Source: a virus (taxonomy: Duplodnaviria; Heunggongvirae; Uroviricota; Caudoviricetes). Taken from it: a stretch of DNA of 64,000 nucleotides. How positions within the stretch are numbered: position 1 is the first letter of the stretch; every line of letters starts with the position of its first letter. The notes under the pieces were generated by a model. That model had not been told where the DNA came from, searched no databases, and saw only the letters and a list, made by a program, of their open reading frames with translations. Shown in pieces: positions 18,115-50,200 of the stretch. The stretch is taken from positions 1 to 64,000 of the IMG/VR virus record IMGVR_UViG_3300042914_003231. The stretch is one strand, 5' to 3'. A program made the translations under genes and the position numbers.

Positions 18115-18124
18115 CATAATATTT

Positions 18125-18337: not shown

Positions 18338-18342
18338 CTTAA

Positions 18343-18415: not shown

Positions 18416-18417
18416 CT

Positions 18418-18491
18418 GTGTCTGTAGAGGAATTGGTAGACTCCCCGGAATGTGGATCCGGTGCTTGTGGGTTCAAGTCCCATCAGACACC
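18418..18491 (+). tRNA. tRNA-His (GTG)
   Basis: Acceptor GTGTCTG/CAGACAC; arm CCGGA-ATGTGGA-TCCGG; T arm GTGGG-TTCAAGT-CCCAT. The only tRNA followed by an encoded CCA. Base -1 is T, not G. Confidence 0.88.
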
Positions 18492-18497
18492 CCATTA

Positions 18498-18571
18498 GTT
18501 CTCATAGCTCAATTGGATAGAGTCCTTGACTACGGATCAAGAGGTTGAAGGTTCGACTCCTTCTGAGAACA
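18498..18571 (+). tRNA. tRNA-Arg (ACG)
   Basis: Acceptor GTTCTCA/TGAGAAC; arm CTTGA-CTACGGA-TCAAG; T arm GAAGG-TTCGACT-CCTTC. Confidence 0.92.
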
Positions 18572-18576
18572 CATAA

Positions 18577-18647
18577 TGCCCTTTCGTCTAACGGCAGGAC
18601 CTGTGGTTTTGGGCCACATGATCGAGGTTCGAATCCTTGAGGGGCAA
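18577..18647 (+). tRNA. tRNA-Gln (TTG)
   Basis: Acceptor TGCCCTT/AGGGGCA; arm TGTGG-TTTTGGG-CCACA; T arm CGAGG-TTCGAAT-CCTTG. Followed by a T-run. Confidence 0.9.
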
Positions 18648-18680
18648 CTAGTTTTTTATTGTTTGCACATCCAAAGTTTT

Positions 18681-33649: not shown

Positions 33650-34278
33650 GTAATAACTATGTATACAGACATATTCGGCTAGATAAGAATGAGCCTTTTT
33701 ACATAGGTATAGGTTCTGGAGATTCCTATAAGAGAGCACATTCTAAAAGAGGTAGAAGTAGGTTTTGGACAGCTATTTCTAAAAAAGGATATGTTGTGCA
33801 GATCTTAGCTGAAAATCTAATTAGAGAAGAAGCTTCTATAAAGGAAAAAGAGTTTATAGAGCTATATGGAAGATTGGATTTAAAAACCGGAAGCTTGTGC
33901 AACTTTACAACAGGTGGTGATAATAATTATTCTCTATCTTGTTTGACAAAGGAAAAAATGAGAAAAGCTCACACCGGTCTTAAGCAATCTACAGGCTGTG
34001 TAGAAAAAAGAGTGGAAAAATTAAAAGGTAAGAAAAGAACACCAGAGTTTTGTGAAAGAATAAGGCTTATAAAGTTAGGATCTAAACTTCCTTCTTTAAG
34101 GAGAAAAAGACCTGAGATAAGTATAGCAAAGCAACAAAAAGTTATGAATACAGATACTCATGAAATATATGAATCTGTTAATGATATGGCTAAAGCTCTT
34201 CATATTCATCCTTTAACTGCTACTAGATGGTTGAAAAATCCAGACAAGCCTTTCATAAAAGTTAAAAATATAAGATAA
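33646..34278 (+). CDS. GIY-YIG homing endonuclease (free-standing), 210 aa
   Basis: YVYRHIRLDKNEPFYIGIG...R...EKEFIELYG...N, plus NUMOD-like C-terminal repeats. ATGA overlap with the terL stop. Confidence 0.85.
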   Translation: MSNNYVYRHIRLDKNEPFYIGIGSGDSYKRAHSKRGRSRFWTAISKKGYVVQILAENLIREEASIKEKEFIELYGRLDLKTGSLCNFTTGGDNNYSLSCLTKEKMRKAHTGLKQSTGCVEKRVEKLKGKKRTPEFCERIRLIKLGSKLPSLRRKRPEISIAKQQKVMNTDTHEIYESVNDMAKALHIHPLTATRWLKNPDKPFIKVKNIR

Positions 34279-34279: not shown

Positions 34280-37048
34280 ATGCAAGTATTAAATGCCTTA
34301 CAACTAAAAGGTGGAAAAAAAGCAGAATATAATAGGATGGGATCGATCACCCAACCTCTGCAATTTCTTCCCAGAAAAGATAAAGATCCTGAGTGGAGAG
34401 CTTGGAATATTGACTGGTTAGAATGGAATGGTCTTAAGCAAATCCGTAGAAATGCAAGAAGACTTAGTAAAAACTACAAGCTTGCTAAAGGCGTAATTGA
34501 TAAAACCGACTATATTGTTGAGGATGACAATGAGATGAGAGATCTTGTTGACACTCTTATGAAAGAAGATGTAAGTGCATTGGAACTAAAATTTTACCCT
34601 ATTATACCGAATGTAATCAATGTATTGGTTTCTGAATTTGCAAAAAGAAATAGCAAGATCACTTTCCAGGCAAAAGATGAATACTCCTACAATGAAATGC
34701 TGGAGCAAAAGCGTTCTCAAATAGAGCAAGTGCTTTATTCGCGTGCTGAACAAAAACTCTTAGCAAAGATGTTAGAACAGGGTTTGGACCCTAATGATCC
34801 AGAAGTACAGGAACAGATGCAACAGCAGACTTCTCCGGAAGCTATGAAAACTCTTCCTGAAATCCAGGAATTCTTTGATAAGAGTTATAGAAGTTTAGCT
34901 GAGCAATGGGCTACTCACCAGTTTAAGATCGATGAAGAAAGATTTAGAATGGATGAGCTTGAAGAAAGAGCCTTCCGAGACATGCTTATCACCGATCGCG
35001 AGTTCTGGCACTTTAAGATGAATGATGATGACTATGATATTGAGCTTTGGAATCCAATGCTTACTTTCTACCACAAGTCTCCTGATGCGCGTTATATCTC
35101 TCAGGGTAACTGGGTAGGTAAGATCGATATGATGACTGTGGCCGATGTTGTGGATAAGTACGGCTACATGATGACTGAAGAACAATTGGCATCTCTTGAA
35201 GCTATTTATCCGGTAAGATCTGCAGGTTATCCGTTAGCTGGTTATCAGAATGATGGTTCTTACTATGATGCTACTAAGTCTCATGAGTGGAATACCAATA
35301 TGCCAGGCTTAGCCTACAGACAGTTTGTTTCCATGTATGATAACTTCATCTACAATGGTGGAGATATTATTAACTGGATCATGGCTGAAGGTGAAGACTA
35401 TGCTCCTATGGGGTCTGCTTTTTTACTTCGTGTAACAACAGCTTACTGGAAGTCTCAAAGAAAAGTTGGGCACCTAACAAAAGTAAATGAAAGTGGAGAT
35501 GTAGAAACTGATATTGTAAGTGAAGAATACAAAGTAACTGACAAGCCTATCTATGACACTACTCTTATCAAGAATAAAACTAAGGACACTCTAGTATTTG
35601 GAGAGCACATTGACTGGATCTGGATCAACCAGGTTTGGGGTGGTGTAAAGATTGGCCCTAACCATCCTTCCTTCTGGGGTATGAACAATCCGGGTGGTAT
35701 TAATCCTATGTATTTAGGTATTGATCAGAATCAGATCGGTCCTCTTAAGTTCCAGTTCAAAGGTGACAATACTCTCTATGGATGCAAACTTCCTGTAGAA
35801 GGTGCTGTATTCAATGACAGAAATACAAGATCTACTGCGATGGTAGACTTAATGAAACCTTTTCAAATTGGCTATAATATTGTAAATAACCAAATAGCAG
35901 ATATCTTGGTAGATGAACTCGGTACCGTGATTATGCTTGATCAAAATGCTCTTCCTAAACATTCATTGGGAGAAGACTGGGGTAAGAACAACTTCCAAAA
36001 GGCTTATGTAGCCATGAAGAATTTCCAGATGCTTCCTTTAGATACTACTATTACCAACACTGAGAATGCATTAAACTTCCAGCACTTCCAGGTAATGAAC
36101 CTTGAGCAAACACAAAGAATGCTATCAAGGGTTCAATTGGCCAACTTCTTTAAGCAGCAATGTTTTGAAGTGATCGGTATCACTCCTCAAAGACTTGGTC
36201 AACAGATTGGACAAACTGATACTGCAAAAGGTATTGAGCAGGCTATAATTGGATCATATGCTCAGACTGAGACATACTTTATCCAGCACTCTGATTACTT
36301 AATGCCTCGCGTACATCAGATGAGAACTGACTTAGCTCAGTACTACTGTTCTAAAAAGCCGTCACTAAGACTTCAGTACATGCTTTCCACAGATGAAAAA
36401 GTTAACTTTGAGATGAATGGTACAGAACTTCTTTTAAGAGACATTAATGTATATGCTACAACAAAAGCTAACCAGCGCGCTATTCTAGAGCAAATGAAAC
36501 AACTTGCTGTAGGTAACAATACAACCGGTGCCACTATCTATGATCTTGGTGAGGTTATGCAATCCGAATCTCTTGGTGAACTTACCAACAAGCTTAAAGG
36601 TCTTGATAAGAAAGCACAAGCTCTTCGTCAAGAACAAATGCAGCATGAGCAACAACTTCAAAAGCAAGCTGATGACAGCCGTCTTAAGGAGAAACAACTT
36701 GAGCTTGACTACAAAGCACAAGAAGCTGAGAAAGATCGTAGAAAAGATATCCTTATTGCTGAGATCAAGTCTGCCGGCTATGGAGCTATGCAAGATATTA
36801 ACCAGAACCAACAGTCTGATTACTTGGATGCTTTAGCACAAATAAAGTCTTCTGAAGAGTTTCAGGAGTCTATGAATCTGCAGAACACTAAAGAGAACAA
36901 CCGTATGGCTGCAGACCGTGATAAAGCTCAGATAGAGCGCGAGAAAATGCAAGCTGCCATGAGAATGAAAGAAATGGATGTGGCAATAGCCAGAGAAAAT
37001 AAGAATAAATATGATGCAAAGAAAAAAGATGAGAAAAAGAAAAAGTAG
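34280..37048 (+). CDS. portal protein, 922 aa
   Basis: Position between terminase and scaffold/capsid, and size. Gln/Glu/Lys-rich coiled C-terminal tail. Confidence 0.7.
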   Translation: MQVLNALQLKGGKKAEYNRMGSITQPLQFLPRKDKDPEWRAWNIDWLEWNGLKQIRRNARRLSKNYKLAKGVIDKTDYIVEDDNEMRDLVDTLMKEDVSALELKFYPIIPNVINVLVSEFAKRNSKITFQAKDEYSYNEMLEQKRSQIEQVLYSRAEQKLLAKMLEQGLDPNDPEVQEQMQQQTSPEAMKTLPEIQEFFDKSYRSLAEQWATHQFKIDEERFRMDELEERAFRDMLITDREFWHFKMNDDDYDIELWNPMLTFYHKSPDARYISQGNWVGKIDMMTVADVVDKYGYMMTEEQLASLEAIYPVRSAGYPLAGYQNDGSYYDATKSHEWNTNMPGLAYRQFVSMYDNFIYNGGDIINWIMAEGEDYAPMGSAFLLRVTTAYWKSQRKVGHLTKVNESGDVETDIVSEEYKVTDKPIYDTTLIKNKTKDTLVFGEHIDWIWINQVWGGVKIGPNHPSFWGMNNPGGINPMYLGIDQNQIGPLKFQFKGDNTLYGCKLPVEGAVFNDRNTRSTAMVDLMKPFQIGYNIVNNQIADILVDELGTVIMLDQNALPKHSLGEDWGKNNFQKAYVAMKNFQMLPLDTTITNTENALNFQHFQVMNLEQTQRMLSRVQLANFFKQQCFEVIGITPQRLGQQIGQTDTAKGIEQAIIGSYAQTETYFIQHSDYLMPRVHQMRTDLAQYYCSKKPSLRLQYMLSTDEKVNFEMNGTELLLRDINVYATTKANQRAILEQMKQLAVGNNTTGATIYDLGEVMQSESLGELTNKLKGLDKKAQALRQEQMQHEQQLQKQADDSRLKEKQLELDYKAQEAEKDRRKDILIAEIKSAGYGAMQDINQNQQSDYLDALAQIKSSEEFQESMNLQNTKENNRMAADRDKAQIEREKMQAAMRMKEMDVAIARENKNKYDAKKKDEKKKK

Positions 37049-37166
37049 CCTGTAGCCATATATTGCCAAATATTTTTATAGGCCCCTTACAAAGTTTCAA
37101 ATCTATTAAGTTTATTTCATTATTTTTGTTATATTATAATAAGTCAGTCAATAAACCAACCAACAT

Positions 37167-38468
37167 ATGAGTGATACAAAAGATACCACAGTAATTCAAA
37201 CAGCAGACATAGATCTGAATGAACTACTTGGAACACCAGGAGGAGACAATGTAATGCTTCCTGAAGGCCAACAGGCAAAACCTAGTTTATTTACTAGAAA
37301 ACCTGAAGACCTATCGTTCCTTGACAAACCTGAAAAAAATGATACAGCAGCTGCTCAAGCTAAGCCAGCTGAAGAAACTGATCCTGCTAAAAAAGAGAAA
37401 AGTAATAATCCGAACCCAGAAGGTACCCCCAATCCAGAAGGAAAGAAAGATGACATCCTTGATGAAATCATTCAAAACACTCCTGAAGGTGGTGCTAAAC
37501 AAGATGCAGATGATGGTAAAAAAAGTGGTCGTCCTACAGGTCTTGTAGAGCTTGGAACTAAACTTATTGAAAAAGGCATCATTACTCCTTTCGAAGGAGA
37601 AGAAGATGTTAGTAAATACACCCTTAAAGACTGGGAAGAACTTTTTGAAGCTAATGAAAAAGAGAAAGCTAAGAAACTTGAAGAACAAGTATCTGCCGGT
37701 TTTTTTGAATCATTGCCTGAAGAACTTCAGGTTGCTGCCCAATATGTAGCAAATGGCGGACAAGATCTTAAGTCTTTATTTCAGTCATTAGCTGCGGTAG
37801 AAGAAATTCGCCAGTTGGACACTAAGACTGAAGAAGGTCAGGAACAAATTGTAAGAAGCTATCTTCATGCAACTCGTTTTGGTACTCCAGAAGAAATCGA
37901 AGCAGAGTTAGAAGATTGGAAAGATCGTGATCAACTAGAAGCTAAAGCTAACCAGTTTAAGCCAAAACTTGATGCTATGCAAGAACAGATTGTTCAAAGA
38001 AAACTTCAAGAACAAGAAAAGATGCGTGCTGCTCAGCAAAAGCAAGCTAAAGTATACACTGATAATATCTACAAAACCCTTGAGCCAGGTGAATTAAATG
38101 GTCTTAAGTTAGACAAAAAAACCCAGAACATGTTGTTTGCTGGTTTAACTCAAGGTAACTATCCATCAATATCAGGGCGTTCTACCAATTTACTAGGTCA
38201 CTTATTAGAAAAGTACCAGTATCAAGAACCGAATCATGCATTAATAACTGAAGCTCTTTGGTTATTAGCTGATCCAGAAGGATACCGTGCTAAAGTAAAA
38301 GAAGGCGGAAAGAAAGAAGTTGTAGCAAATACAGTGCGTACATTAAAACAGGAACAAAGTAACAGAATTGCATCAGGATCTCAAGAGGACGATGATGATT
38401 CATCAAGAGGTGGTAAGAAGACCAGTGGTATTCCTAGACCTAGTGGTGGAAATTTCTTTAAAAGATAA
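37167..38468 (+). CDS. scaffolding protein, 433 aa
   Basis: Acidic, Lys/Glu-rich and coiled-coil-like; lies between the portal and capsid genes. Confidence 0.6.
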   Translation: MSDTKDTTVIQTADIDLNELLGTPGGDNVMLPEGQQAKPSLFTRKPEDLSFLDKPEKNDTAAAQAKPAEETDPAKKEKSNNPNPEGTPNPEGKKDDILDEIIQNTPEGGAKQDADDGKKSGRPTGLVELGTKLIEKGIITPFEGEEDVSKYTLKDWEELFEANEKEKAKKLEEQVSAGFFESLPEELQVAAQYVANGGQDLKSLFQSLAAVEEIRQLDTKTEEGQEQIVRSYLHATRFGTPEEIEAELEDWKDRDQLEAKANQFKPKLDAMQEQIVQRKLQEQEKMRAAQQKQAKVYTDNIYKTLEPGELNGLKLDKKTQNMLFAGLTQGNYPSISGRSTNLLGHLLEKYQYQEPNHALITEALWLLADPEGYRAKVKEGGKKEVVANTVRTLKQEQSNRIASGSQEDDDDSSRGGKKTSGIPRPSGGNFFKR

Positions 38469-38507
38469 TAACATTAACAATTATAAACTAAAAACAAAAA
38501 ACAAAAA

Positions 38508-40133
38508 ATGGCAACTCCAGTATTAAACAATGGTATATTCTTGCGCGACACGAATTACCATGCTACATCACATGTAGACAGTTATCACCTTCAGAACATG
38601 TTAAAAGATGCTGAACCAATGGATATGGGACCGGTAGATATTTGGGCAATGACTCAAAAGGTAGAAATGCCTCTTTACCAGTTATCATCTTTTGGTGGTA
38701 AAAATATCATCATGGTTGATAATGTCCGTGGTGAATATAAATGGCAAACTCCTGTATCACAGGATTTACCTTACATTATTGAGGACATCGAGCCTACAAA
38801 CTTAGCTAAAGGTCAGGATGGCACAACCTTCCGTATCAAGATTAACAAGCGTGAGTTTGGTCATGGTGATATCATCACTTATGACAAATACAATGGTGTC
38901 GAGTTATACATTACTGCTGATGATATCTTACCTATGGGTGACGGTTTCATCTACACTGTGCAGTTGGTAAACAATGACAACTACAAATTCTTAGACAACA
39001 AGTATTTAGTTCCTCAAACCAAATTATTCCGTAAAGGTTCTGCCCGCGGTGAGTATGGAGAAAGATTCTCTGACATCCAAACTCGCTCTGGCTTCCGTGA
39101 GTTCTACAACTTCGTAGGAGGAGCAGAAGCACATGTTCACTACTCTATCAGCTCTCGTGCTGACTTACAAATCAAGGGTGGTATGAATGCAGATGGTACA
39201 GTTCCTGTAACTGAGATCTGGAGAAACTTTGATAAACAATTAGACCCTTCAATCAGTAAGATCGAAGACATCGCTTCAAAGATGGGTAAAGACTACTTGA
39301 AGCGTGCAGTGGGTAATGGTACCTTAACCCGTACCTTCTTAACCTCTATGGAGGCTGCTCACTTAACTAAGATTTCTACTGACATTGAGACCTATTTAAT
39401 GTGGGGTCATGGTGGACGCGTTAAGCAAGATGGACCAGATGACATCCGTATGTCAGTGGGTCTATGGAAACAGCTTGACAACTCTTACAAGCGCGTATAC
39501 AACAAGTCAAGCTTTAGCTTAGAATTGTTCCGTGCTGAGTTATACAACTTCTATGCAGGTCGTGTTGAGTTCCAAGGTCCGGATCCAAAACGCTCATTGA
39601 TTGTACAAACAGGTATGGGTGGTATGCGCTTAGTAAATGAGGCTATCAAGCGTGAAGCTGTAAACTCAGGTTTAGTTATCCAAGCTGCTAGCAACAATGG
39701 TATTGGTGCTATCACAGGTCAAGGTATGGACTTAAACTATGGCTTTGCATTCACAAGCTATGTAATTCCATTCTTAGCAAATGTTAAGTTTGTGTTAAAC
39801 CCTGCGTTTGACAACTTACATACTAATGACATTGAGAACCCAATCATTGATGGTAACCCATTATCATCATACAGCTTTGTGATCTTCGACATCACAGACA
39901 CTGGTAACGACAACATCTACATGTTGAAGTTATCTTGGGATAACCAATTAAAATGGTGGTACCAGAATGGTACAATGGACTACATGGGACGTACCCAAGG
40001 CTTCCAGTCTTCTGGACAGTTTAACGGTTACCGTGTATACATGAGCCAAACTATGCCAGCTATCTGGGTGAAAGACCCTACCAAAGTGTTGAAGATTGTT
40101 ATGCGCAATCCGATCACTGGTGGTTCTTTCTAA
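38508..40133 (+). CDS. major capsid protein, 541 aa
   Basis: Position after the scaffold gene; codon usage shifts to CGT, G/C-ending codons; a GC-rich stem-loop follows. Confidence 0.65.
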   Translation: MATPVLNNGIFLRDTNYHATSHVDSYHLQNMLKDAEPMDMGPVDIWAMTQKVEMPLYQLSSFGGKNIIMVDNVRGEYKWQTPVSQDLPYIIEDIEPTNLAKGQDGTTFRIKINKREFGHGDIITYDKYNGVELYITADDILPMGDGFIYTVQLVNNDNYKFLDNKYLVPQTKLFRKGSARGEYGERFSDIQTRSGFREFYNFVGGAEAHVHYSISSRADLQIKGGMNADGTVPVTEIWRNFDKQLDPSISKIEDIASKMGKDYLKRAVGNGTLTRTFLTSMEAAHLTKISTDIETYLMWGHGGRVKQDGPDDIRMSVGLWKQLDNSYKRVYNKSSFSLELFRAELYNFYAGRVEFQGPDPKRSLIVQTGMGGMRLVNEAIKREAVNSGLVIQAASNNGIGAITGQGMDLNYGFAFTSYVIPFLANVKFVLNPAFDNLHTNDIENPIIDGNPLSSYSFVIFDITDTGNDNIYMLKLSWDNQLKWWYQNGTMDYMGRTQGFQSSGQFNGYRVYMSQTMPAIWVKDPTKVLKIVMRNPITGGSF

Positions 40134-40141
40134 GAACTCGT

Positions 40142-40230
40142 GCTCTAGAGGGAGTCTTCCATGCTCCCTCTTACATGAGCACCTTGCCCGGGGATGCGTT
40201 CACCACAGAGCTCGCAACTCTGCCCGGGAA
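40142..40230 (+). other. GC-rich structured spacer after the capsid gene
   Basis: 8-bp stem AGAGGGAG/CTCCCTCT (40147-40171) extended by GCTC/GAGC, then direct repeat TGCCCGGG at 40185 and 40221. No T-run. Confidence 0.5.
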
Positions 40231-40261
40231 CAAAACTTTACAACTTTTAAAAACTAAAACA

Positions 40262-41053
40262 ATGAAACTATTCACTAATCAGATTGCCAATACATTTTCT
40301 ACTGTAAAACAATTTGTAACATTTGTCGGTGGAAACCGTGCATATGCAACTGTAGCACAGCTTAATGAAATTATCACTAAGCTTTCTCCTATGTATAAAG
40401 TCACAACTTATCCTAATAACATTGTTGCTAAAGATTTTTCTTTAAACAATCCAGTTCTTTCAAGTAGAGAAAAATTTGTTTATAATACAGTTTTTAAACC
40501 TTCTGTTTTTACAGCTTTAAATCCTGGTTTTAAATTGAATATTATTGACATAGAAAATCAATCAGAGTTAACATCTGTTGAAAGACTTGAAGTTGTAATA
40601 GGATATGAAGGCTTAAATAATTGGGATGGTGGAGATTTTCAACTTTGGTTAGGAAATTCTCTTGTTGCAACTATTCCTTCAGCTACTATGACTAATACTA
40701 GTGGAACACCTAATTATTCAAAATCATTACTTGTACCTATTACAAATGTTATAGAACTAGCTACTGGTACTTATACAGCAGGAGTTTCTGGAAGAGGTAT
40801 TCAATTTAACAATCCTAAAACAATGTTTAACATCAGATTAACTTCTAAAACTACTAGTTTTATAGGAGCTGTAGGATTAAATATGATTGTTGCAAAACAA
40901 AATAATGCGGGATGTGGTACATGGTGTGAAACAACTTGTAATTTTAATGATCCTGCTAGTACTGTTTATTGTAGTATTATAGCAGGTAATAAATGTAGCT
41001 ATTGCAAAATTCCAAATGGAGCTTGGGATTCAGGTGATGTAAATCCTGTATAA
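40262..41053 (+). CDS. virion protein with a Cys-rich C-terminus, 263 aa
   Basis: Start moved to ATG 40262, after the structured spacer. C-terminus GCGTWCETTCNF...YCSIIAGNKCSYCKIP. Confidence 0.6.
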   Translation: MKLFTNQIANTFSTVKQFVTFVGGNRAYATVAQLNEIITKLSPMYKVTTYPNNIVAKDFSLNNPVLSSREKFVYNTVFKPSVFTALNPGFKLNIIDIENQSELTSVERLEVVIGYEGLNNWDGGDFQLWLGNSLVATIPSATMTNTSGTPNYSKSLLVPITNVIELATGTYTAGVSGRGIQFNNPKTMFNIRLTSKTTSFIGAVGLNMIVAKQNNAGCGTWCETTCNFNDPASTVYCSIIAGNKCSYCKIPNGAWDSGDVNPV

Positions 41054-41081
41054 CCTTATAAACCAACAATAAACCAACAAT

Positions 41082-42101
41082 ATGAGTACAGTAACAATCG
41101 TCTCTACTGCAGAGACAGCAAAATCAGGTGGTATATCCATCAAACCGTTCTTTGATCCAAACAAACAAAATATGGGCCTTGAAAAATACGGCCTTGCTTT
41201 GTTTGATGGCATTTTTCATGAAGAGCAATTAGCTTGCCTTGAAAGAAATGGTCAAAAAAGATACTTAACCGGACTTAATGAGTTTTCTCCAGATGTAAAA
41301 AACATCCCTAATCCTGAAGACAGGGAAGCAAAGATCAAAGAGATTCGTACTGTAGTAGCTCAACTTGAGAGAGAATTGGCTTCTAATGTTATTGATCCTA
41401 AAGATCCCGAGTTCTGGAACAAGGTTCAGTTACTTAGACCAGATAATGATGATTTGTGGTCTAAGATCACAATTCGTTGTGGTAATGAACCAGTAATTCT
41501 TGATCCTTCTAGAGAACCGTATGATCTTATCAAAATCTATGCTATTGAAGCCGGTGGATTTTCTCTTGTAGCTAAAAGCTATGAGGATGCGCGTAGCAGA
41601 GCTGTATCACCAAAATTCTTTTTGGATAAATACACAGAAACTGTATCTACCAAAACAGAAGTTACCAAGATCCGTAACAAAGCCTTGGCTGAGCTTATCA
41701 AGTTATTTGATAAGAACCAGAACAAGTTATTCTTAGTTGCAAAAGTTGTGGATGGTAATAGTGTTCAGTACAAGAAGTCTACTCCTAATGATATTGTTTA
41801 TGATAACATGGACCGCTTCATTACAGGACAAGGTGTTGAGAAAAACATGAAGCGTGCTGCTCAGAGCTTTATCGATGCTTGTGCTATGAGCATGGAAGAA
41901 TTAAAGATCAAAGCCTTGATCAAAGATTCTACCTACTACAAGTTTATTCAGTTAAAAGCTGATGGCTTTATCTACCACACAGACACTTCTACTCTAATGG
42001 GTAAGAATGTATCAGACTGTTTTGAGTTCTTGAAGAATCCTTTACACGATGCAGTGTTACTGGATCTTACTCAAAAGGTAGAAAAGTACTGGAATGTGTA
42101 A
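41082..42101 (+). CDS. hypothetical structural-module protein, 339 aa
   Basis: ORF track. Confidence 0.65.
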   Translation: MSTVTIVSTAETAKSGGISIKPFFDPNKQNMGLEKYGLALFDGIFHEEQLACLERNGQKRYLTGLNEFSPDVKNIPNPEDREAKIKEIRTVVAQLERELASNVIDPKDPEFWNKVQLLRPDNDDLWSKITIRCGNEPVILDPSREPYDLIKIYAIEAGGFSLVAKSYEDARSRAVSPKFFLDKYTETVSTKTEVTKIRNKALAELIKLFDKNQNKLFLVAKVVDGNSVQYKKSTPNDIVYDNMDRFITGQGVEKNMKRAAQSFIDACAMSMEELKIKALIKDSTYYKFIQLKADGFIYHTDTSTLMGKNVSDCFEFLKNPLHDAVLLDLTQKVEKYWNV

Positions 42102-42119
42102 TAAGAAAAACAACATACA

Positions 42120-42338
42120 ATGGCAACAAAAAAAATGAAAACTGGTGGGATGACAAATCCTAATAAAGCAGTAACAGTGAGCAAGACTCCTACTAAGTAT
42201 ACTGGCGGAAAGAATGCTTCGGCTTCGGTACAAAAAGTTACTCCTAAAGCAAGTGTAACTAAAGGCTCTAATGCTTCGGCAAAAGTGTCTCCATCTAAGA
42301 AGATGGGTGGTTCTACAAAAAGTAAGAAAAGTTGTTAA
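42120..42338 (+). CDS. tiny Lys-rich protein, 72 aa, ends KKMGGSTKSKKSC
   Basis: ORF track; C-terminus paralogous to that of 42753..42980. Confidence 0.6.
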   Translation: MATKKMKTGGMTNPNKAVTVSKTPTKYTGGKNASASVQKVTPKASVTKGSNASAKVSPSKKMGGSTKSKKSC

Positions 42339-42387
42339 ACCAGAAATGGCCCCAGAGAAATCTGGGGTCTTTCTATAAACCAAACAC

Positions 42388-42591
42388 ATGGCAAAAATAA
42401 CAAATAAAGTAGATAAAGAGTACCAAGCTAAATGGGATCTTGATACGCTAAGACAAGCTAAAGAAATTCAAAGCAATACTGCTAGAATGAAAGCTGCTCA
42501 AAACTATGCTAAAGAACAAGTAAAAATGTTAGGTGGTATTGTATCTGACAAAGGTAAAGCACCCGCAAGAAAATCTTCTAGGAAGAAATAA
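42388..42591 (+). CDS. tiny basic protein, 67 aa
   Basis: ORF track. Confidence 0.6.
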   Translation: MAKITNKVDKEYQAKWDLDTLRQAKEIQSNTARMKAAQNYAKEQVKMLGGIVSDKGKAPARKSSRKK

Positions 42592-42592
42592 T

Positions 42593-42751
42593 ATGTCTGA
42601 TAAAAAATGGATCCAAAAAGCCACAGCTTCCATCAAACGTAGAGGAACTGAAGGCAAATGTACTCCTATTACAAAACCAGGATGTACAGGTAAAGCAAAA
42701 GCTTTAGCAAAAACTTTTAAAAAAATGGCAGCAGCCAGAAAAGGAAAATAA
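42593..42751 (+). CDS. tiny basic protein, 52 aa
   Basis: MSDKKWIQKATASIKRRGTEGKCTPITKPGCTGKAKALAKTFKKMAAARKGK. Start set at ATG 42593, in frame with the track ORF. Confidence 0.55.
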   Translation: MSDKKWIQKATASIKRRGTEGKCTPITKPGCTGKAKALAKTFKKMAAARKGK

Positions 42752-42752
42752 C

Positions 42753-42980
42753 ATGGCAAAGAAATTAATAAAAAAACAAACTGGTGGAGTAAGTTCCGGA
42801 CAAAGAGCTCAACAAAAAATGGATTCCTTGTACAATGCTAATAAAGCAAGAACAAAGGCTATGTATGATTCTATGATGAAAAGCGTACCTAAAGCACAAG
42901 CTCCGAAAGCTAAAGATAGTACAAAAGTCACAATAACCAAGAAAAAAATGGGTGGTTCAAGTAAATCTAAAAAATGTTAG
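42753..42980 (+). CDS. tiny Lys-rich protein, 75 aa, ends KKMGGSSKSKKC
   Basis: ORF track. Confidence 0.6.
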   Translation: MAKKLIKKQTGGVSSGQRAQQKMDSLYNANKARTKAMYDSMMKSVPKAQAPKAKDSTKVTITKKKMGGSSKSKKC

Positions 42981-42981
42981 C

Positions 42982-43266
42982 ATGGCAAAAAAAACACCAG
43001 CATGGACAAGAAAAGAAGGTAAGAATCCTTCTGGAGGCTTGAATAAAAAAGGAGTAGCTTCATACAGAAAAGAAAATCCAGGTAGTAAATTGCAAACTGC
43101 AGTAACTACTAAACCTTCAAAATTAGATCCTGATAGTAAGGATGCTAAAAGAAGAAGCTCTTTTTGTTCTAGAATGGAAGGTATGAAGAAAAAACTTACT
43201 TCATCTAAAACAGCAAAAGATCCTAACTCAAGAATTAACAAGTCATTAAGAAAATGGAATTGTTAA
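42982..43266 (+). CDS. small basic protein, 94 aa
   Basis: MAKKTPAWTRKEGKNPSGGLNKKG...SFCSRMEGMKKK...RINKSLRKWNC. Start set at ATG 42982. Confidence 0.6.
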   Translation: MAKKTPAWTRKEGKNPSGGLNKKGVASYRKENPGSKLQTAVTTKPSKLDPDSKDAKRRSSFCSRMEGMKKKLTSSKTAKDPNSRINKSLRKWNC

Positions 43267-43340
43267 ATTTAAGATTTATGAATACACTTTATTAAAGGTG
43301 GTAAAAACAAGTAGTAAAATAAAATTTAAAAAGAAATAAC

Positions 43341-43520
43341 ATGTCCGGATTAAAAAAAGGCTCTAAGAGCACAGGTGGTATAGATGCTACAAACCTTAAA
43401 GTGATCAAGCACTATAATGATACATTTGAGGACAATAACAAAAAAAGAAATCAACCTCGAGTAGAGGTGATGCAAGAATTCTTTCCTAATGGGAAAGCTC
43501 CTAAAGCTAAAAGAAAATAA
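43341..43520 (+). CDS. tiny basic protein, 59 aa (below the track cut-off)
   Basis: Manual translation: MSGLKKGSKSTGGIDATNLKVIKHYNDTFEDNNKKRNQPRVEVMQEFFPNGKAPKAKRK. Its stop overlaps the next ATG. Confidence 0.5.
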   Translation: MSGLKKGSKSTGGIDATNLKVIKHYNDTFEDNNKKRNQPRVEVMQEFFPNGKAPKAKRK

Positions 43521-44224
43521 TGCAAAATTCCGCTATACTCATAAAGGTTCAGGAAAGGTTGAACAAGATCTCTAGCAGTGACTATGATAACATAGAACCG
43601 TGGCAGATTATTGAAGCCTTCTGTAAGGCCCAAGTCGATTGGTGCCGTAGAAATCTTCATGGTTTGAACATTAAAAAAGAAGGTGATGAACAGTCAACTA
43701 GAAGAATAGATGACCTTCAGAAATTGTTGATTGCATCTCCTATAATAATGAATAACAAGCAAACCTATTATGAGAGTGTAACCTTTCCTGCTGATTACTT
43801 ACAATGGAAAAGAGTATCTTGTCAAGCAACAAGTGAATGCTGCTCTAGTCCTAAACCTATGGTTGTTTATTTAGCTGAAGTAGCTAATGAAGATGAACTT
43901 TTAAGAGATCTTAATAAACAACCTAGTTTTGAGTGGGGAGAAACATTTGCTACTCTATTAAATAATACTTTAAGAATCTACACTAATGGTTTATTTACTC
44001 CGGTTCAGGTAGAGTTTTACTATTACCGTCAACCAAGAAGAATTCAAATAGCCGGTGTTGTAGATCCTTACACAGGAAATACATCTGCTACAGATGTTAT
44101 ATCAGAATTCAAAGATGACCTAGTAGAGGTTATGATCGATGAAGCTGTTAAGATCTTAGCTGGTGATATAGAGTCAATGACTCAATACCAAAGAGCAAGT
44201 CAATCTGTAGAAAACAATAATTAA
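43520..44224 (+). CDS. head-completion or head-tail adaptor candidate, 234 aa
   Basis: Call is by position; C-terminus DEAVKILAGDIES is adaptor-like. Weak assignment. Confidence 0.4.
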   Translation: MQNSAILIKVQERLNKISSSDYDNIEPWQIIEAFCKAQVDWCRRNLHGLNIKKEGDEQSTRRIDDLQKLLIASPIIMNNKQTYYESVTFPADYLQWKRVSCQATSECCSSPKPMVVYLAEVANEDELLRDLNKQPSFEWGETFATLLNNTLRIYTNGLFTPVQVEFYYYRQPRRIQIAGVVDPYTGNTSATDVISEFKDDLVEVMIDEAVKILAGDIESMTQYQRASQSVENNN

Positions 44225-44226
44225 CA

Positions 44227-44649
44227 ATGACAATAACTAGACCATTAAAAGGAACAAACAATAAGGAATCTCTTGAAGGTTCTGTTGCAAATTGTGTAAC
44301 TGAGCTAATGAATGCAGCTACAACATTTCATAAATTGCATCTTAAAGTAAGAGGTACTGGAGCATATGCTGCTCACAAAGCTCTTAATGAACTTTATACC
44401 GCATTACCCGAGCATGCAGATGCATTAGCTGAAGGATTCCAAGGAGCTTGTGAAAAGCTATTAGAGTGTTCAGATATGATCCCAAGAAAGGTTGAATCAG
44501 TAGATGAGGCAATAACTTACATAAGAGATCTTACTACTATGGTGAATAATCTTCAGAGTAAAATGCCATATTCAGAAATAGTGAATGAACTTGACACAGT
44601 TAAGGATACTTTTAACTCTGCCAAGTACAAATTATTATTTTTAAAATAA
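44227..44649 (+). CDS. Dps/ferritin-like four-helix-bundle protein, 140 aa
   Basis: FHKLHLKVRGTGAYAAHKALNELYTALPEHADALAEGF resembles the Dps H..vkG..F..lH..l.e.y......D.iAE pattern. Confidence 0.5.
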   Translation: MTITRPLKGTNNKESLEGSVANCVTELMNAATTFHKLHLKVRGTGAYAAHKALNELYTALPEHADALAEGFQGACEKLLECSDMIPRKVESVDEAITYIRDLTTMVNNLQSKMPYSEIVNELDTVKDTFNSAKYKLLFLK

Positions 44650-44670
44650 ATTTGCACAAAAGATAAAGAT

Positions 44671-44682
44671 TTTGTATATTAG
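44671..44682 (+). promoter_or_regulatory. candidate late-promoter box TTTGTATATTAG
   Basis: Same 13-mer as at 18680-18692. Confidence 0.4.
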
Positions 44683-44719
44683 TATTATTATTTATTTATA
44701 AACCTAAAAAAGAAAAAAA

Positions 44720-46114
44720 ATGAGTTATTTTAACCATGCCTTCTCCAAGCAATTTCTTGGAACCGGCCCAACCCGCAACCTGGTTAGTACTGGCGCAGCT
44801 GCTTCAGTAACCAACCCTTTTTCAAACGGTGGTTTCATCTTGACCCCTGGTACAAGCACAACCACTTTATCAAATCTTCCAGCAGGTACTACTAACTTGC
44901 CTAAATCAGGTTACTTTGGATTTTTTGATCCAAACACTTACCTGTCTATTGATCCAACATTGACGACTTACAACTGTTGTCCTTTAGTGTTAGCTTCGGC
45001 TTCATTATTGACTAATGACAAGATTGGTCCTTTTCACGGTGGTTACCGCGAGACTAACAAATCTAAGGTAATTAATCCTAAGTATGTACAAAAAGCATAC
45101 AAGGTTACTACTTGCGTTCCTCAACAAACTGTAGTTTCTGTAGGTAGCACTCCTCAAACTCTTTTACCAACTGTTCCTGAAAAATTCCAAGGTGGTACAA
45201 CTTCTGCAACATGTTGTTTTACTTTCCTTTGTGGTGAAACATACTACTTACGCGTAGATATTAAAGGTTCTCCTGCACTTCGTGCTTTGAATCACAATGC
45301 TTACCAAACAGTAGATGCTTATACAGGTTGCTGTGCAGGACCTACTCCAACACCGGTTGACTCTACTTTAGTGTTCATTCAGTGGGCTGAGCAAATCATT
45401 CAAAATAACTACTTAAAGCCTTTTGTGCTTCCAGTAGTATTTGATCAAACTGGTGCTGCATGGTATGCTCCTGGTACTACAGTAGATCCTATTACTTTAG
45501 CTCCAGTATTACCAGCTCAGTGGTGGACTGCTTATGTGTCTCCAGGATATACTACAGGTGCTTGTGGTGGTATGCGTTTATTCGGTGCCTTTGTTGAGAC
45601 AAAGTTTGGTAACTGTACTTTCCAAGTAACTGATTTCTTCGAGAAAGAGCCAATTAAGATTTATGCCTCTATGGTTGACTACACTGGTGATCCTTGTGTA
45701 TTCGAAGGAATTTGTGTGTATAACGACTGCCTTGGCTTACAAGGTATGGGCTTTGGTGAACAAGTTGTTCGTGACTTGATCCTTTCTGAATCATACTTAC
45801 AAAACTTCTTTGCAAGTAATGACTTCCGTGTGAGAGAGATCACTCAAGGTTATGACATCTTGAACTCTGTAAACCGTAATGCATTGTACACTCGTTACTT
45901 CTTGTTACATAGTGTGCCTCGTTTCAACAACCCTACTGGTGTGTTTGATAATGATCGTTACATGCTTGAGATTATTGTTCCTGAGGTTAACCCTCTTGTG
46001 CCGGTAGGAAATCCAGCATTGGATACCTTCTTGACCAACTGGTTAGCAAGTTGTGCAAACTGTGTACCTTTTGAAACACAATCTTGTACATACTGTACTC
46101 CAGAAAACAACTAA
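44720..46114 (+). CDS. abundant structural protein (major tail protein or second shell protein?), 464 aa
   Basis: Own promoter-like box and a strong terminator; capsid-like codon usage; several Cys pairs (NCC, CCF, GCCAG). Confidence 0.7.
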   Translation: MSYFNHAFSKQFLGTGPTRNLVSTGAAASVTNPFSNGGFILTPGTSTTTLSNLPAGTTNLPKSGYFGFFDPNTYLSIDPTLTTYNCCPLVLASASLLTNDKIGPFHGGYRETNKSKVINPKYVQKAYKVTTCVPQQTVVSVGSTPQTLLPTVPEKFQGGTTSATCCFTFLCGETYYLRVDIKGSPALRALNHNAYQTVDAYTGCCAGPTPTPVDSTLVFIQWAEQIIQNNYLKPFVLPVVFDQTGAAWYAPGTTVDPITLAPVLPAQWWTAYVSPGYTTGACGGMRLFGAFVETKFGNCTFQVTDFFEKEPIKIYASMVDYTGDPCVFEGICVYNDCLGLQGMGFGEQVVRDLILSESYLQNFFASNDFRVREITQGYDILNSVNRNALYTRYFLLHSVPRFNNPTGVFDNDRYMLEIIVPEVNPLVPVGNPALDTFLTNWLASCANCVPFETQSCTYCTPENN

Positions 46115-46134
46115 AATTATAAGCCTAGAAAGAA

Positions 46135-46161
46135 GGGGAGGGGGGAACTCCTCCCTTTTTT
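46135..46161 (+). terminator. strong intrinsic terminator
   Basis: 8-bp stem GGGAGGGG/CTCCTCCC with a GGAA loop and T6. Confidence 0.8.
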
Positions 46162-46167
46162 GTTAAT

Positions 46168-46488
46168 ATGCAGTCTATTCTTAGATGTAAAAAGCCGAGT
46201 TGCTCAAATAGTTTCGAGCAAACTAGAAAAGACAGAGTCTATTGTTCTAGACACTGTAAGACTACGCATAAGACTAACAAAAGCAAGAAGAAAAAGCAAA
46301 AGCCCTATACAATTTTTAAAAAAGATATTTGTGAAAATTGTAAATTTGTACCTATCCATTCTTGCCAGTTAGATGTAGATCATATTGATGGTGATAATAA
46401 TAACAATCAGCCATACAATCTGAGAACCTTATGTGCAAACTGTCATAGGCTAAAAACATTTATGAGTGAGGATTGGAAAAAAGTTTAA
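46168..46488 (+). CDS. HNH homing endonuclease, 106 aa
   Basis: CQLDVDHIDGDNNNNQPYNLRTLCANCHRLKT. Begins 7 nt after the terminator. Confidence 0.8.
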   Translation: MQSILRCKKPSCSNSFEQTRKDRVYCSRHCKTTHKTNKSKKKKQKPYTIFKKDICENCKFVPIHSCQLDVDHIDGDNNNNQPYNLRTLCANCHRLKTFMSEDWKKV

Positions 46489-46499
46489 TAAATTTCATC

Positions 46500-47063
46500 A
46501 TGTCAAGACACGTTTTAAGTCTGGAAATACCAGACACACTCAATAAGTGTATTCTAAGGGTAGTTGACACTAGTGTCTATGACCCAAACATAGCTGTTAC
46601 TTGTCCTCTGTTACAAGTAACTACACCTGGTTTTATACATCCTGTTAATTTTTCTGAGCCTCAAATTTTTCCCGGATTCATGGCGAACTTAACAGCTTGT
46701 GATCTAGGCCTTCAAACAGCAGATTGTAATACTGTGTTCTTTGATATTCCTGATGGGATTTATATCATAAAGTATAGTGTTGAACCAAAAAAGTTTGTGT
46801 ATGTTGAATACAATCACTTAAGAACAACTTGTGCTTTAAATCGAATCAATAAGATTCGATGCTCTCTAAACCTTGGAGCTTGTGAACCTCCTACAGATGT
46901 TTTACAAAAGCTTCAACAAATTGGTCTAATTGAACAATACATTAAAGCTGCTAAAGCCTATGTAGAAGATTGTCATGATCCTAAAAAAGGTATGGAAATC
47001 TTTAAGTATGCTGTAAAGCTAATTGATAAGTTATCTTGTTCAACTGGATGTGAAACTTGCTAA
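46500..47063 (+). CDS. Cys-containing virion protein, 187 aa
   Basis: Start set at ATG 46500. Ends CSTGCETC. Confidence 0.6.
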   Translation: MSRHVLSLEIPDTLNKCILRVVDTSVYDPNIAVTCPLLQVTTPGFIHPVNFSEPQIFPGFMANLTACDLGLQTADCNTVFFDIPDGIYIIKYSVEPKKFVYVEYNHLRTTCALNRINKIRCSLNLGACEPPTDVLQKLQQIGLIEQYIKAAKAYVEDCHDPKKGMEIFKYAVKLIDKLSCSTGCETC

Positions 47064-47085
47064 ATAATTTTTAAAACCAACAAAT

Positions 47086-47277
47086 ATGAATTGTACAAAC
47101 TGTGGAGCTAAATTAGGATGTGGTTGTCAAAAAAGAATTGCTAGTGATGGCAGATCTTGTTGTGCTAACTGCATTTCAGCATACGAAGCCGGTCTTAAAA
47201 AAACCAATTTAAGTATGCCAGGAACTAAACCTTCTAATGTAAGTGTGTTTTACACAGCTCCAAAAAAGACAAACTAA
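47086..47277 (+). CDS. small Cys-rich protein, 63 aa
   Basis: MNCTNCGAKLGCGCQKRIASDGRSCCANC. Confidence 0.6.
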   Translation: MNCTNCGAKLGCGCQKRIASDGRSCCANCISAYEAGLKKTNLSMPGTKPSNVSVFYTAPKKTN

Positions 47278-47280
47278 CAA

Positions 47281-50200
47281 ATGGCATGTTACGAAATACA
47301 AAATTGTCAGACTAATACTACTAGTATAATTAGTTATGCAGGACCTAGTTTAACACTTGGGGATATTATTAAACCTACACCTTCTATCGATCCGCCAAAT
47401 GTTAGTGCTGATTGCTGGACGGTTATTGGGGGTCCTATCCCTTGTGACAGTTTGCCTTTTGTAACAGTTACCAGTGTTGTTATTTATAATAGTTGCTCAC
47501 CTTGTATTGCAACACAACTTCCTACTTGTTATGAACTTACTGATTGTTCAGGAACTGTTGTATACTATACTAATGATAATCTATCATCTTTTGTAGGTAA
47601 CTATGTTTCTAGCCCTCTTTATCCGGGATATTGCTTTTATGTAGCAGTATCTCAAACTTGTACTAATCCTGTAGCTTTTAGTAATCCTGTTGCTTGTACT
47701 TGTACTTGTTATACTTTAACTGATTGTGAAGGAATTATTCCCCCATTTAATACATTCTCTAACTTAGCAGCTTATTTTGGTCAGGTAATTCAAATTAATG
47801 AAAATGGTGGATGTGCTGGACCATGTTTCTTTGTTAGTGTTAACACTGGAACATGTGGTGAACCTCGTGCTGCTACTGTTACACTTAATTGTCAACCGTG
47901 TCCTCCTTGTAATGATTGTTATGTACTACTTGACTGTACTACAAGACAACCGTTTCTCACTCTTTCAAACCCTACAGCAAATGGTATTGACTTATCTACT
48001 CTTATTGGTCAAGTTATTGGTCAAGTTTGTCTTGGCCCTAATAATACGCAATGTACAAATGGTTGTTGGGAAATTCAACAAGCTTCATCATGTGCTGGAT
48101 CAGTAAATGCTTATGTATATAACATATTCCAAGATTGTGTATCATGTAATGCAGTATGTTATAAGTTTACAAATTGTCAAACCTTACAAGAGATACTTGT
48201 TACTTACACTGTTCCGAATATTACTCTACCGAATCCATCAACTCTTTTAGGTAATACATTAGGTTCTTTATGTTTTAAACCTCCTACAAATTGTTTATCT
48301 GGGTGCTGGAATGTATCACTTAATGATACTGCAGATTGTTCAGGAGCTATTGATTGGACCGCTGCTCTTAGTTACACAGAGTTTGCAAATTGTACTCAGT
48401 GTCAGCCTGCGTGTTACCTTCTTACTGAATGTGCTCCGGCAATTACTCCTCCTTTTATTGTGAGTAATGACTTGAGTCTTTATGTAGGAAATGTTGTTAA
48501 AATATGTGACTCTCAAGGTAATTGTAATTGCTATAATGTAGAACTTGCACAAACTTGTGATGGATCTATTGTTATAGATAATGCTAATGCAAGCTTTACT
48601 ACTTGTGAAGAATGTAATTCTTGTGATTGTCCTCCAGGTTATACTAAGATTGATGACTATTGTCAAAAAATTACTAGTGTTCCTGCTATCTTAAATCCTT
48701 CTATTTATAACTCAGCTCCAGGAAGTATTAATGATAACTACGGTAGTCTTGGTACAAGATTCTATCCGAATGTTACAAGTCTTCCTTATCCTTTAACAGC
48801 TGTTACTGGACCAGATAGATTTGTTGATTTTGCTAATGTTAATGTTTCTTATACATCAAGTGTAGTAGGTATATGGGGTGGTCCTGTCGGATCAAGATTA
48901 AGTACGGTTGGTATATGGACATCTGTTGCTCCTAATCCTATAAACGAATGGATCGGTTTTGCACAGTGTATTAATATTCCTACAACCGGAACTTATTGTG
49001 TAGGTATTGGTGGTGATGATTGTGTAAGAGTAAAACTTGACGGAGTTATTATTGCAGAGGCTTGTATAGGATTTTTTGATTTTAGATACTGGCATGTATT
49101 TGAGTTAAATCTTACAGCAGGAACTCATGTGATTGTTGTTGAAGGAAATAGTGGAGGTGGACCTGCAGCCTTTGGTGCTGAAATTTATCAAACTAACATT
49201 GTTGCTTTACAAGCAATAACTACTGTCCCAGCTTTACAAGCTATTACTGTGTTTAGTACTTTCCCAATGAGAAGTACTCCAACACCATTCCAAACCGGTC
49301 AAACATCTGGTTACTCTTGTCCTCCAGGTTCAACACTTAATTTGTGTGGAACACCTAGTTGTACAATTATTGAAACTATTCCTTTTGTTTCTTGTGCTCC
49401 AACATTCAGAGTAACTGATTGTGCAGGTATTATGGAACCTTTTATTACTAATACAGATCTTTCTTCTTACCTAACAGGTATTCATAAAACTTGTATTACA
49501 ACTGCTAATTATAGTACTACTTGTTACTTATTAAGAGACTGTAACCGATTAGTAGATGAAGTTATTACAACAAGTAATATGGAGTCTTATCTATGGACTT
49601 CTGTTTCTCTTAATGAATATCCGGGATCATGCTTTTTAGTATTACCTTTACCTTCAAATACCACATGTGTAACTAATCCTGTAACATTAAGTTCTAATCC
49701 TTGTGTTTGCCCTAATGCTCAACAGCCTTGGCCAAATGGTTGCTATTGTGTTACAGTAGAAGAAATACTTATACCAGAAGTAGCTCCAGATTTTCTTGGA
49801 GTATTCCAAAATCAACTTTATAACTGCTGTGAGGACTGTCTTCGCGTGTGCTATTTACTTACAGATTGTCAAGGAGCCCTTGACCCAGTAGTAGTATGTA
49901 ATGATCTAGAACTATATATAGGAAAAATAATTCAGATTGAAGGTTGTGGTGATACTTGTTGGCAAGTTGCAACATCAAACAATTGTAATAGCAATACAAT
50001 CTTTGCTGGAGCTATTACCAGTTTCGAAACATGTGAAGATTGTCTTCCGCCAATTCCTCCAGCTCCACTTTTAGAGTTGCACCCAAGAAGAATTAAACCA
50101 GGGTACTTCAGCCCTAACTGTAAGATTCCTTTAGAATATATTGAAAAAGTAAACTGTACTTTTGCTAGACAAGTTTATGACAGTATGCTTATATTAAGAT

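Follow-up and report, generated by a model that had tools for sequence, protein, structure and literature searches.

A variable slot for small lysine-rich proteins in the head-gene block of a crAss-like phage

Six consecutive small open reading frames (ORFs) in the head-gene block of a crAss-like phage raise the question of what a run of tiny, strongly basic proteins is doing next to the capsid genes. These ORFs, called s1 to s6 here, occupy positions 42120-43520 of the window, the stretch of 64,000 nucleotides that was analysed (positions 1-64,000 of the IMG/VR record IMGVR_UViG_3300042914_003231, to which all coordinates refer). A preliminary description of this DNA had proposed that they encode packaged DNA-condensing or ejected internal proteins, histone-like or protamine-like in character. 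Comparison with related contigs identifies the six ORFs as one instance of a lineage-wide slot that takes almost only small polycations; the lineage is abundant and uncultivated, and the slot is a hypervariable cassette within its head-gene block. The products of this locus may be packaged with the DNA, a reading that is weighed below against its alternatives.

Six small genes in a variable slot

The cluster is framed by two conserved genes, p339 and p234, and is composed as follows:

41082..42101, plus strand: p339, conserved left edge of the variable slot
42120..42338, plus strand: s1, 72 aa, low-complexity polycation (16 Lys, zero acidic residues, net charge +16)
42348..42369, plus strand: terminator-like G+C-rich hairpin with a T-run, between s1 and s2
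42388..42591, plus strand: s2, 67 aa, predicted helix at residues 4-52, then KMLGG, then a variable disordered Lys tail
42593..42751, plus strand: s3, 52 aa, strongly conserved basic Cys-loop module WIQKATASIKRRGTEGKCTPITKPGCTGKAKALAKTFKKMA
42753..42980, plus strand: s4, 75 aa, low-complexity polycation and s1 paralogue, with leader MAKKLIKKQTGG and tail KKKMGGSSKSKKC
42982..43266, plus strand: s5, 94 aa, standalone DUF6321 with two conserved Cys (C62, C94)
43341..43520, plus strand: s6, 59 aa, basic protein with leader MSGLKKGSKSTGG
43520..44224, plus strand: p234, 234 aa, conserved right edge of the slot, matching phrog_29507 'virion structural protein' (E 5e-14)

Each of the six ORFs is in its own frame, and from s2 to s5 every stop codon is followed by one nucleotide and then by the next ATG. 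Their pooled composition is led by Lys (21.5%), followed by Ala and Ser (9.8% each), Thr (8.1%) and Gly (7.4%). Each protein contains 19-25% Lys and has an isoelectric point (pI) of 10.1-10.7, and the net charges of the six sum to +84 across 419 residues. The preliminary description of six consecutive Lys-rich ORFs of 52-94 aa is thus borne out. Among the 92 greedy ORFs of the window, only these six, all of them adjacent, combine at least 17% Lys with a pI of at least 10; the median Lys content across the window is 8.4%. AAA makes up 82% of the Lys codons in the small ORFs vs 61% in the large structural genes.

The six ORFs are real genes, because independent callers agree on them (the same six appear in the JGI/NCBI and Logan gene calls), because dN/dS is low for s2, s3 and s5, and because the spacers are tight. 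The dN/dS test used orthologues in related contigs, s1, s4 and s6 having no usable orthologue, and gave 0.15 for s2, 0.08-0.16 for s5 and, for s3, 0.06-0.21 against the closest orthologues (81-84% identity) and up to 0.49 against more distant ones. These values indicate purifying selection on s2, s3 and s5. It could be argued that the ORFs arose by chance in an A-rich stretch, or are decayed fragments of longer genes: the AT skew of the whole window peaks in the 42-43 kb bin, and s4 and s6 have no detectable homologues. Such an origin is nevertheless highly improbable, and is already largely refuted for s2, s3 and s5, considering the selection on these genes, the thousands of homologues, the separate ATG and tight spacing of each ORF, and the agreement between pipelines. 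Decay of one longer gene is ruled out by the dN/dS values, by the separate start codons and by the existence of selected fused and split forms. ORFs on the minus strand (e.g., 42057-42389) were rejected as candidate genes, being the Phe/Leu-rich mirror of coding sequence rich in the Lys codon AAA.

The cluster did not arise as a tandem duplication, since at least four unrelated families with a common composition can be distinguished in it. Only s1 and s4 are clearly related beyond composition (local alignment z = 8.0 vs shuffles), and three colinear DNA repeats (D1, D3, D4), spaced 639-678 nt apart, tie the two genes together. This agrees with the paralogous tails reported in the preliminary description, as do the terminal Cys residues, which are found in s1, s4 and s5. 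In s1, the leader MATKKMKTGG is paired with the tail KKMGGSTKSKKSC, the final residues being SKKMGGSTKSKKSC. The likeness between s4 and s6 is weaker (z = 6.7), and the remaining pairs are unrelated beyond composition.

Two classes of genes can be separated: slowly evolving small modules (s2, s3, s5) vs fast-evolving low-complexity polycations (s1, s4, s6), which retain only their composition and end motifs. Among the former, s5 matches the Pfam family DUF6321 (PF19846) over profile positions 1-72 of 72 (73.8 bits vs a cut-off of 28.5), in agreement with a precomputed hit, and has at least 7990 metagenomic homologues as well as matches in 525 deposited phage records, mostly cyanophages and pelagiphages; its carriers include phages of cyanobacteria, SAR11 and Methylophilales. 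Its AlphaFold 2 (AF2) model is a small four-helix structure of moderate confidence (pLDDT 69.6), to which a Foldseek search of the PDB returned no match (best E 7.6). The s3 module matches 495 cluster representatives (clusters at 50% identity), in most of which it makes up the last ~50 aa of a longer protein. All 58 homologues of s2 are standalone proteins of 62-72 aa, and the AF2 model of s2 is a single long helix over the residues given above with a disordered tail (pLDDT 66.5). In deposited phage genomes, s2 and s3 have one weak match, in a 595-kb uncultured phage, and otherwise none.

Among the fast-evolving proteins, s1 belongs, as a divergent member, to a 'TNPT(R/K)YTGG' family whose genes usually open the slot, with s1-like genes at 38 loci (35-51% identity). 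The only relative of s4 among 5.8 billion proteins was s4 itself, and s6 had none in the IMG/VR search; judged by eye, s6 resembles an 'NPLxxF(N/R)' family whose usual place in relatives is the end of the slot. The search for homologues called for in the preliminary description has therefore succeeded for s1, s2, s3 and s5 and yielded none for s4 and s6. With the exception of DUF6321 in s5, the six proteins have no significant Pfam or PHROG match: the families of T4 internal proteins are unmatched, and none of the six matches histones, protamines, HU/IHF, Dps, H1-like proteins or adenovirus pVII/mu (Pfam E <= 1).

The relatives used for comparison were 80 IMG/VR contigs, out of ~600 matches, whose major capsid protein (MCP) is 83-93% identical to that of the window. 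p339 is recognizable in ~65 of the 80 (55-79% identity), invariably with small genes downstream, and p234 is 55-74% identical in relatives. The interval between the two was taken as the slot; 43 relatives hold both genes, which with the window gives 44 loci. Across these loci the slot spans 374-4249 bp and holds 2-15 ORFs, with differing families in differing order, and in one further relative (contig L031) it is reduced to ~170 bp. The 285 slot proteins have a median length of 86 aa and fall into 69 sequence clusters, yet 96% have a pI of at least 9.5 and 86% contain at least 15% Lys. This composition is confined to the slot almost completely: in the 43 relatives, Lys-rich basic ORFs number 178 of 271 inside the slot vs 4 of 668 in the 690 kb outside it, and three of these four adjoin the MCP gene. 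Slot genes are packed closely, with a median spacer of 2 nt and 64% of spacers at 3 nt or less. The preliminary description had called so large a set unusual for tailed phages. This holds among cultured phages, no such array being present in the cultured relatives crAss001, Flavobacterium phage FpV4 and Leptolyngbya phage Lbo-JY46, but not in the uncultivated lineage, where it is the rule.

The hairpin between s1 and s2 has a 9-bp stem with 6 GC pairs (dG ~-22 kcal/mol) and is the strongest terminator-like site in 37000-47500. As a conserved operon boundary it is ruled out, being missing in relatives.

A Lys/Gly-Gly motif and modules shared with packaged proteins

Slot proteins that are otherwise unrelated have a motif in common, roughly K-M-K-K-G-G-(S/T/A)-x-K-x-K-K. 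It was counted 161 times vs 16 in composition-preserving shuffles, a roughly ten-fold excess, and it forms the end of the protein in 59 of 242 cases, where 2.8 are expected. Gly-Gly dipeptides as such are enriched about two-fold (479 vs 245 expected). The last residue is Lys in 138 of the 242 proteins and Cys in 39, and 67 of them start with MAK. Inside the motif, the codons for Gly, Lys and Ser match background usage; the motif is therefore a feature of the peptide, and a recombination site at the DNA level is ruled out.

In the window, both s1 and s4 have a basic N-terminal leader ending in GG together with the C-terminal motif, s6 has a GG-ending leader, and s2 has KMLGG ahead of its tail. 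Within the s2 family this last element hardly changes, as LG and the VKM before it are fixed and 3 of 29 sequences have N in place of one G, while the tail beyond it varies. In fused DUF6321 proteins, 'MKKGGS' stands exactly where the standalone form starts with 'MAKSPAW'. The motif might serve as a flexible hinge, in targeting or as a site of cleavage.

Some of the slot modules recur in larger proteins, including one found in virions. T4-GC119, a multi-module 'structural protein' of T4-like cyanophages, carries DUF6321 at its C-terminus in addition to DUF5872 and a CWxGY...NCV module, and the latter two occur as separate mini-genes in the slots of relatives. Among the proteins detected in purified virions of S-SM1, T4-GC119 is listed with 13 peptide counts (Sullivan et al., 2010, PMC3037559 Table S8). 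In P-HM1, its gene is flanked by gp16 and gp17.

The s3 module (76-96% identical) usually ends longer Lys-rich proteins, and is also embedded in proteins of 690-925 aa. Three of the latter, P0261, P0211 and P0251, are encoded on sufficiently long contigs of other crass-like phages, and the gene of each lies immediately 3' of the crAss_MUZ gene, which is the position of cargo protein 1 (gp45) in crAss001:

L089, 8001-10778: s3-module gene after the muzzle gene
L093, 8001-10250: s3-module gene after the muzzle gene
L095, 7001-9304: s3-module gene after the muzzle gene

One of the three, P0261, passes the Pfam threshold for crAss_CARG1 (30.3 bits vs 27). The embedded module is flanked by GG on one or both sides, and its presence in these post-muzzle genes suggests movement between small standalone genes and large cargo-type proteins. 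In addition, a 'KTIRFGQQG' slot family found only in relatives has a weak match to phrog_220, 'minor head protein and DNA pilot' (E 5e-5). A comparable arrangement is found in the unrelated pelagiphage HTVC104P (L083, 4712-5270). There, three ORFs come directly after the capsid gene: the first encodes a hydrophobic product of 41 aa that is not Lys-rich, the second a Lys-rich product of 43 aa that has MKYGG and ends in a KKK tail, and the third DUF6321 as a standalone protein.

The virus and its structural genes

The Crassvirales markers MCP, ring protein 1 and muzzle protein are all present in the window and identify it as part of a crAss-like phage:

31442: TerL (PHROG family match)
34280: portal (PHROG family match)
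38508-40133: MCP (Pfam PF23898 Crass_capsid)
56440-57462, plus strand: tail ring protein 1 (CrAss_Ring_1, E 5e-12)
57462-62831, plus strand: muzzle protein (crAss_MUZ, E 4e-27)

Since the muzzle gene reaches 62831, the position of cargo protein 1 lies at or past the 3' end of the window (62831 onward). The cluster had been placed between capsid-associated genes and a candidate adaptor gene; its location in the head block, between p339 and p234, stands, but the adaptor label of p234 is unsupported because the ring and muzzle genes lie ~13 kb further on. A Pfam scan of p234 gave no match, and similarity to pelagiphage gp75 is absent. p339 shows weak similarity (BLASTP E 9e-4) to gp33 of crAss001, a protein annotated with a dsDNA-binding domain. 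Between portal and MCP, p433 is acidic (pI 4.9, net charge -20) and rich in E, Q and K, a scaffold-like composition. No Shine-Dalgarno sequence precedes any of the six small genes and their upstream regions are A-rich, features that presumably fit a Bacteroidota host. The Rfam scan of 40000-46000 at E <= 1 returned no structured RNAs, and Pfam and PHROG scans of ~25 window proteins, a subset of the ORFs, returned no prohead protease or other processing enzyme.

Several neighbouring genes deserve mention in their own right. The second gene past the cluster, at 44227-44649 (plus strand), is a separate Dps/ferritin-like gene of the structural block (Pfam DUF5856, E 1e-14; PHROG 'starvation-inducible', Dps-type); the structural block of crAss001 holds an HU/IHF-like gene, gp42. 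Between MCP and p339, the window carries p292 (40175-41053, plus strand), which has a Cys-rich C-terminus, neither a Pfam nor a PHROG match, and a counterpart in 0 of 80 relatives. At the same position, the near-identical Logan contig L086 has a 263-aa gene, and relatives occasionally hold other inserts of 0.25-2.9 kb. An HNH endonuclease gene (46168-46488, plus strand) is inserted in the structural block and a gene for a basic NUMOD1-like protein of 210 aa (33646-34278, plus strand) between TerL and portal; both are probably homing endonucleases, as are crAss001 gp37 and gp41 by comparison. Further downstream, a 1414-aa protein (47281-51525, plus strand; pI 4.1, no Pfam match) contains 122 Cys (8.6%), and the neighbouring p404 and p243, with 29 and 19 Cys respectively, are likewise Cys-rich; the three may be disulfide-rich tail or fibre proteins. 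Finally, an array of 24 tRNA genes (15080-18648, plus strand), which includes tRNA-Lys(ttt), lies where the minus-strand genes of 1-13 kb give way to plus-strand genes.

Packaging, its alternatives and known systems

The reading that we favour, though at a little short of even confidence, is that the slot is a hypervariable locus of packaged, DNA-associated small polycations. Slot genes would be co-expressed and translationally coupled with the capsid genes, and their products would be loaded into the procapsid, possibly aided by the acidic, scaffold-like p433 and by the terminal Lys/Gly-Gly motif. They would then remain among the packaged DNA as protein counter-ions or 'mini-cargo' and exit with it at infection. 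That s3 and s5 are highly conserved in phages with different hosts speaks for a partner on the side of the virus, such as DNA, and the fast turnover of s1, s4 and s6, in which composition and end motifs are kept, fits a function residing in charge. As a rough estimate, a genome of ~120 kb has ~240,000 phosphate charges, of which ~285 copies of each of the six proteins (~13 MDa) would neutralise ~10%, a load that would be of the same order of magnitude as the internal protein load of T4. The packaged or ejected internal proteins of the preliminary description are thus supported in part, and indirectly, by position and by the sharing of modules; that the proteins are packaged, touch the DNA and are ejected, and that the motif has any part in this, is inferred.

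Several observations weigh against this proposal. Among close relatives the slot ranges from ~170 bp to 4.2 kb and its content varies more than ten-fold, so that total charge is not conserved and the genes look dispensable; dispensability fits accessory cargo better than an essential DNA-neutralising role. The array is missing from the cultured phages crAss001, FpV4 and Lbo-JY46, and since no protease was found among the scanned window proteins, a cleaved targeting signal is unsupported. Module sharing, moreover, provides context rather than function. T4-GC119 was not detected in Syn9 virions, and in some cyanophages it lies in a putative mobile cassette of metabolic genes (PMC3037559).

Variability of this kind can also be explained if the slot encodes non-virion accessory proteins of the 'moron' type, made late or even early and acting in the infected cell, with the head block as a permissive insertion site. 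They might compact or shield replicated phage DNA before packaging, bind host nucleic acids or ribosomes, or counter host defences. Accessory and arms-race genes typically differ as greatly in presence and absence among close relatives. Other insertions are tolerated in the block as well, namely the HNH gene at 46168, p292 and, between MCP and p339 of relatives, stretches of up to 2.9 kb, and the cyanophage cassette that holds T4-GC119 points in the same direction. A merely permissive site would gather any kind of gene, yet 96% of the 285 slot proteins are strongly basic and they share a motif; in addition, their modules are fused into packaged or cargo-position proteins and, in contrast to what is usual for anti-defence genes, s3 and s5 remain highly conserved in phages that infect different hosts. 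We therefore regard an accessory role as unlikely, if the most serious of the alternatives.

An external location, in which decoration, cement or adhesion peptides turn their Lys tails and Cys residues outward and bind anionic polysaccharides or cell surfaces, or cross-link the shell, is improbable. The location in the head block would suit it, as would the conserved or C-terminal Cys in 39 of 242 proteins, the dockerin/EF-hand-like Ca-binding loops in slot proteins of some relatives (Dockerin_1, a weak, sub-threshold match at E 0.008) and the very Cys-rich tail proteins of the window phage, which suggest disulfide chemistry outside the cell. Most members, however, are predicted to be disordered or a single helix, with no capsid-binding fold; copy number and content both vary, down to a nearly empty slot; the proteins to which the modules are fused are of the internal cargo type and not decoration proteins; and known decoration families are unmatched in Pfam and PHROG. 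Hardly more probable is a variant of the packaging proposal in which the proteins are precursors, the GG being a cleavage site that releases short Lys-rich peptides (e.g., STKSKKSC) and module cores. It draws on the enrichment of GG and, more strongly, of the K/M-K-K-G-G-S context, on the way the motif brackets modules in fused proteins ('MKKGGS' at the start of DUF6321, GG flanking the s3 module), and on the near-invariant GG motif of the s2 family with its variable tail. A flexible Gly-Gly hinge accounts for the same pattern, however; the hydrophobic residue shifts its position relative to GG (KKMGG vs MKKGG), and the subset of window ORFs that was scanned includes no protease.

To our knowledge, little is known of what phage heads contain besides DNA, except in T4, P22, T7, phiKZ-like phages and crAss001, and standard virion proteomics with trypsin misses small Lys-rich proteins almost entirely. 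In full-text literature searches, neither an array of this type nor the motif was found described, and no function was found for DUF6321 or DUF5872. None of the six proteins can be placed in a known family of internal, cargo, histone-like or protamine proteins, and s5 alone is in a family at all (DUF6321). If the slot proteins are packaged, this crass-like lineage, which is abundant in the environment, would be equipped with an exchangeable set of polycations bound to DNA; at least two widespread and unannotated families, DUF6321 and DUF5872, would gain a functional context; and phage control of DNA charge and pressure by encoded counter-ions would become a model open to testing. The short motif might then also serve to direct foreign proteins into capsids, a use already made of the T4 targeting sequence. 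Without packaging, the slot would remain a striking case of selection for composition, in which one genomic position admits nearly every kind of small polycation and hardly any other protein.

Known systems resemble the slot to different degrees. Adenovirus proteins VII, V and mu, protamines and the tails of histone H1 are likewise short, very basic and largely disordered; they condense the dsDNA genome with which they are packaged. The adenovirus protease releases the DNA-condensing mu from pX at (M/L/I)XGG-X sites, which resemble the GG motif of the slot. However, these proteins are Arg-rich whereas slot proteins are Lys-rich, adenoviruses belong to another virus realm, homology is absent, and no adenain-like protease was found among the scanned window proteins. 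The likeness is one of composition only, and with no Pfam or PHROG family match the terms 'histone-like' and 'protamine-like' of the preliminary description do not hold beyond that.

The crassvirus cargo proteins (crAss001 gp45/C1 and gp46/C2) come from the same virus order, and the s3 module is present in three genes at the cargo-1 position. In crAss001, the cargo proteins are kept together with the DNA and are unfolded on ejection (PMC10172136). Cargo proteins, in contrast to the six products of 52-94 aa encoded past the capsid gene, have masses of 60-90 kDa, are encoded past the muzzle gene and are not polycationic overall; none of the six matches crAss_CARG1 (PF25725), and they lie ~14 kb upstream of the muzzle gene. 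With T4-GC119 (the 427-aa protein of S-B43, PHM1_110 of P-HM1 and the S-SM1 orthologue; PHROG 727 and 3477), the slot has in common the DUF6321 of s5 and small Lys/Cys modules, which are joined in a single fusion of 230-500 aa in T4-like phages and are separate mini-genes here. It is conceivable, though doubtful, that unrelated aquatic phages (crass-like phages, T4-like cyanophages and pelagiphages) use a common toolkit of Lys/Cys modules, among them DUF6321, DUF5872 and a WIQKA...CTPxxKxxC module, as capsid counter-ions or mini-cargo. In such a toolkit the modules would be joined or terminated by Lys-Lys-Gly-Gly as a hinge or cleavage motif, and the array described here would be its unbundled form, with its own capsid-targeting or processing signal, and an independent analogue of the T-even internal-protein locus.

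It is with this last system, the T4 and T-even internal proteins IPI, IPII and IPIII with the variable IP loci, that the slot has most in common. About 1000 mobile internal proteins are contained in the T4 head, where their lysines contact DNA phosphates, and T-even internal proteins are highly diverse, with a targeting sequence as their only common element (PMC3012670). Differences exist: the T4 targeting sequence is N-terminal and cut by the gp21 protease, whereas the common Lys/Gly-Gly element of the slot is mostly C-terminal, although a basic leader ending in GG starts three of the six window proteins (s1, s4 and s6), with no protease found among the scanned proteins; and T4 internal proteins are known inside heads, while the slot proteins, which have no sequence homology to them, are known here from their genes. 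Both loci nevertheless encode small basic proteins with a short common terminal element and vary greatly between close relatives; the T4 proteins are dispensable, as those of the slot appear to be, and the hypervariability that characterizes the T4 type is found here as 2-15 genes and 69 clusters across 44 loci. By analogy rather than homology, the T-even internal-protein system would thus be the closest functional counterpart of the slot.

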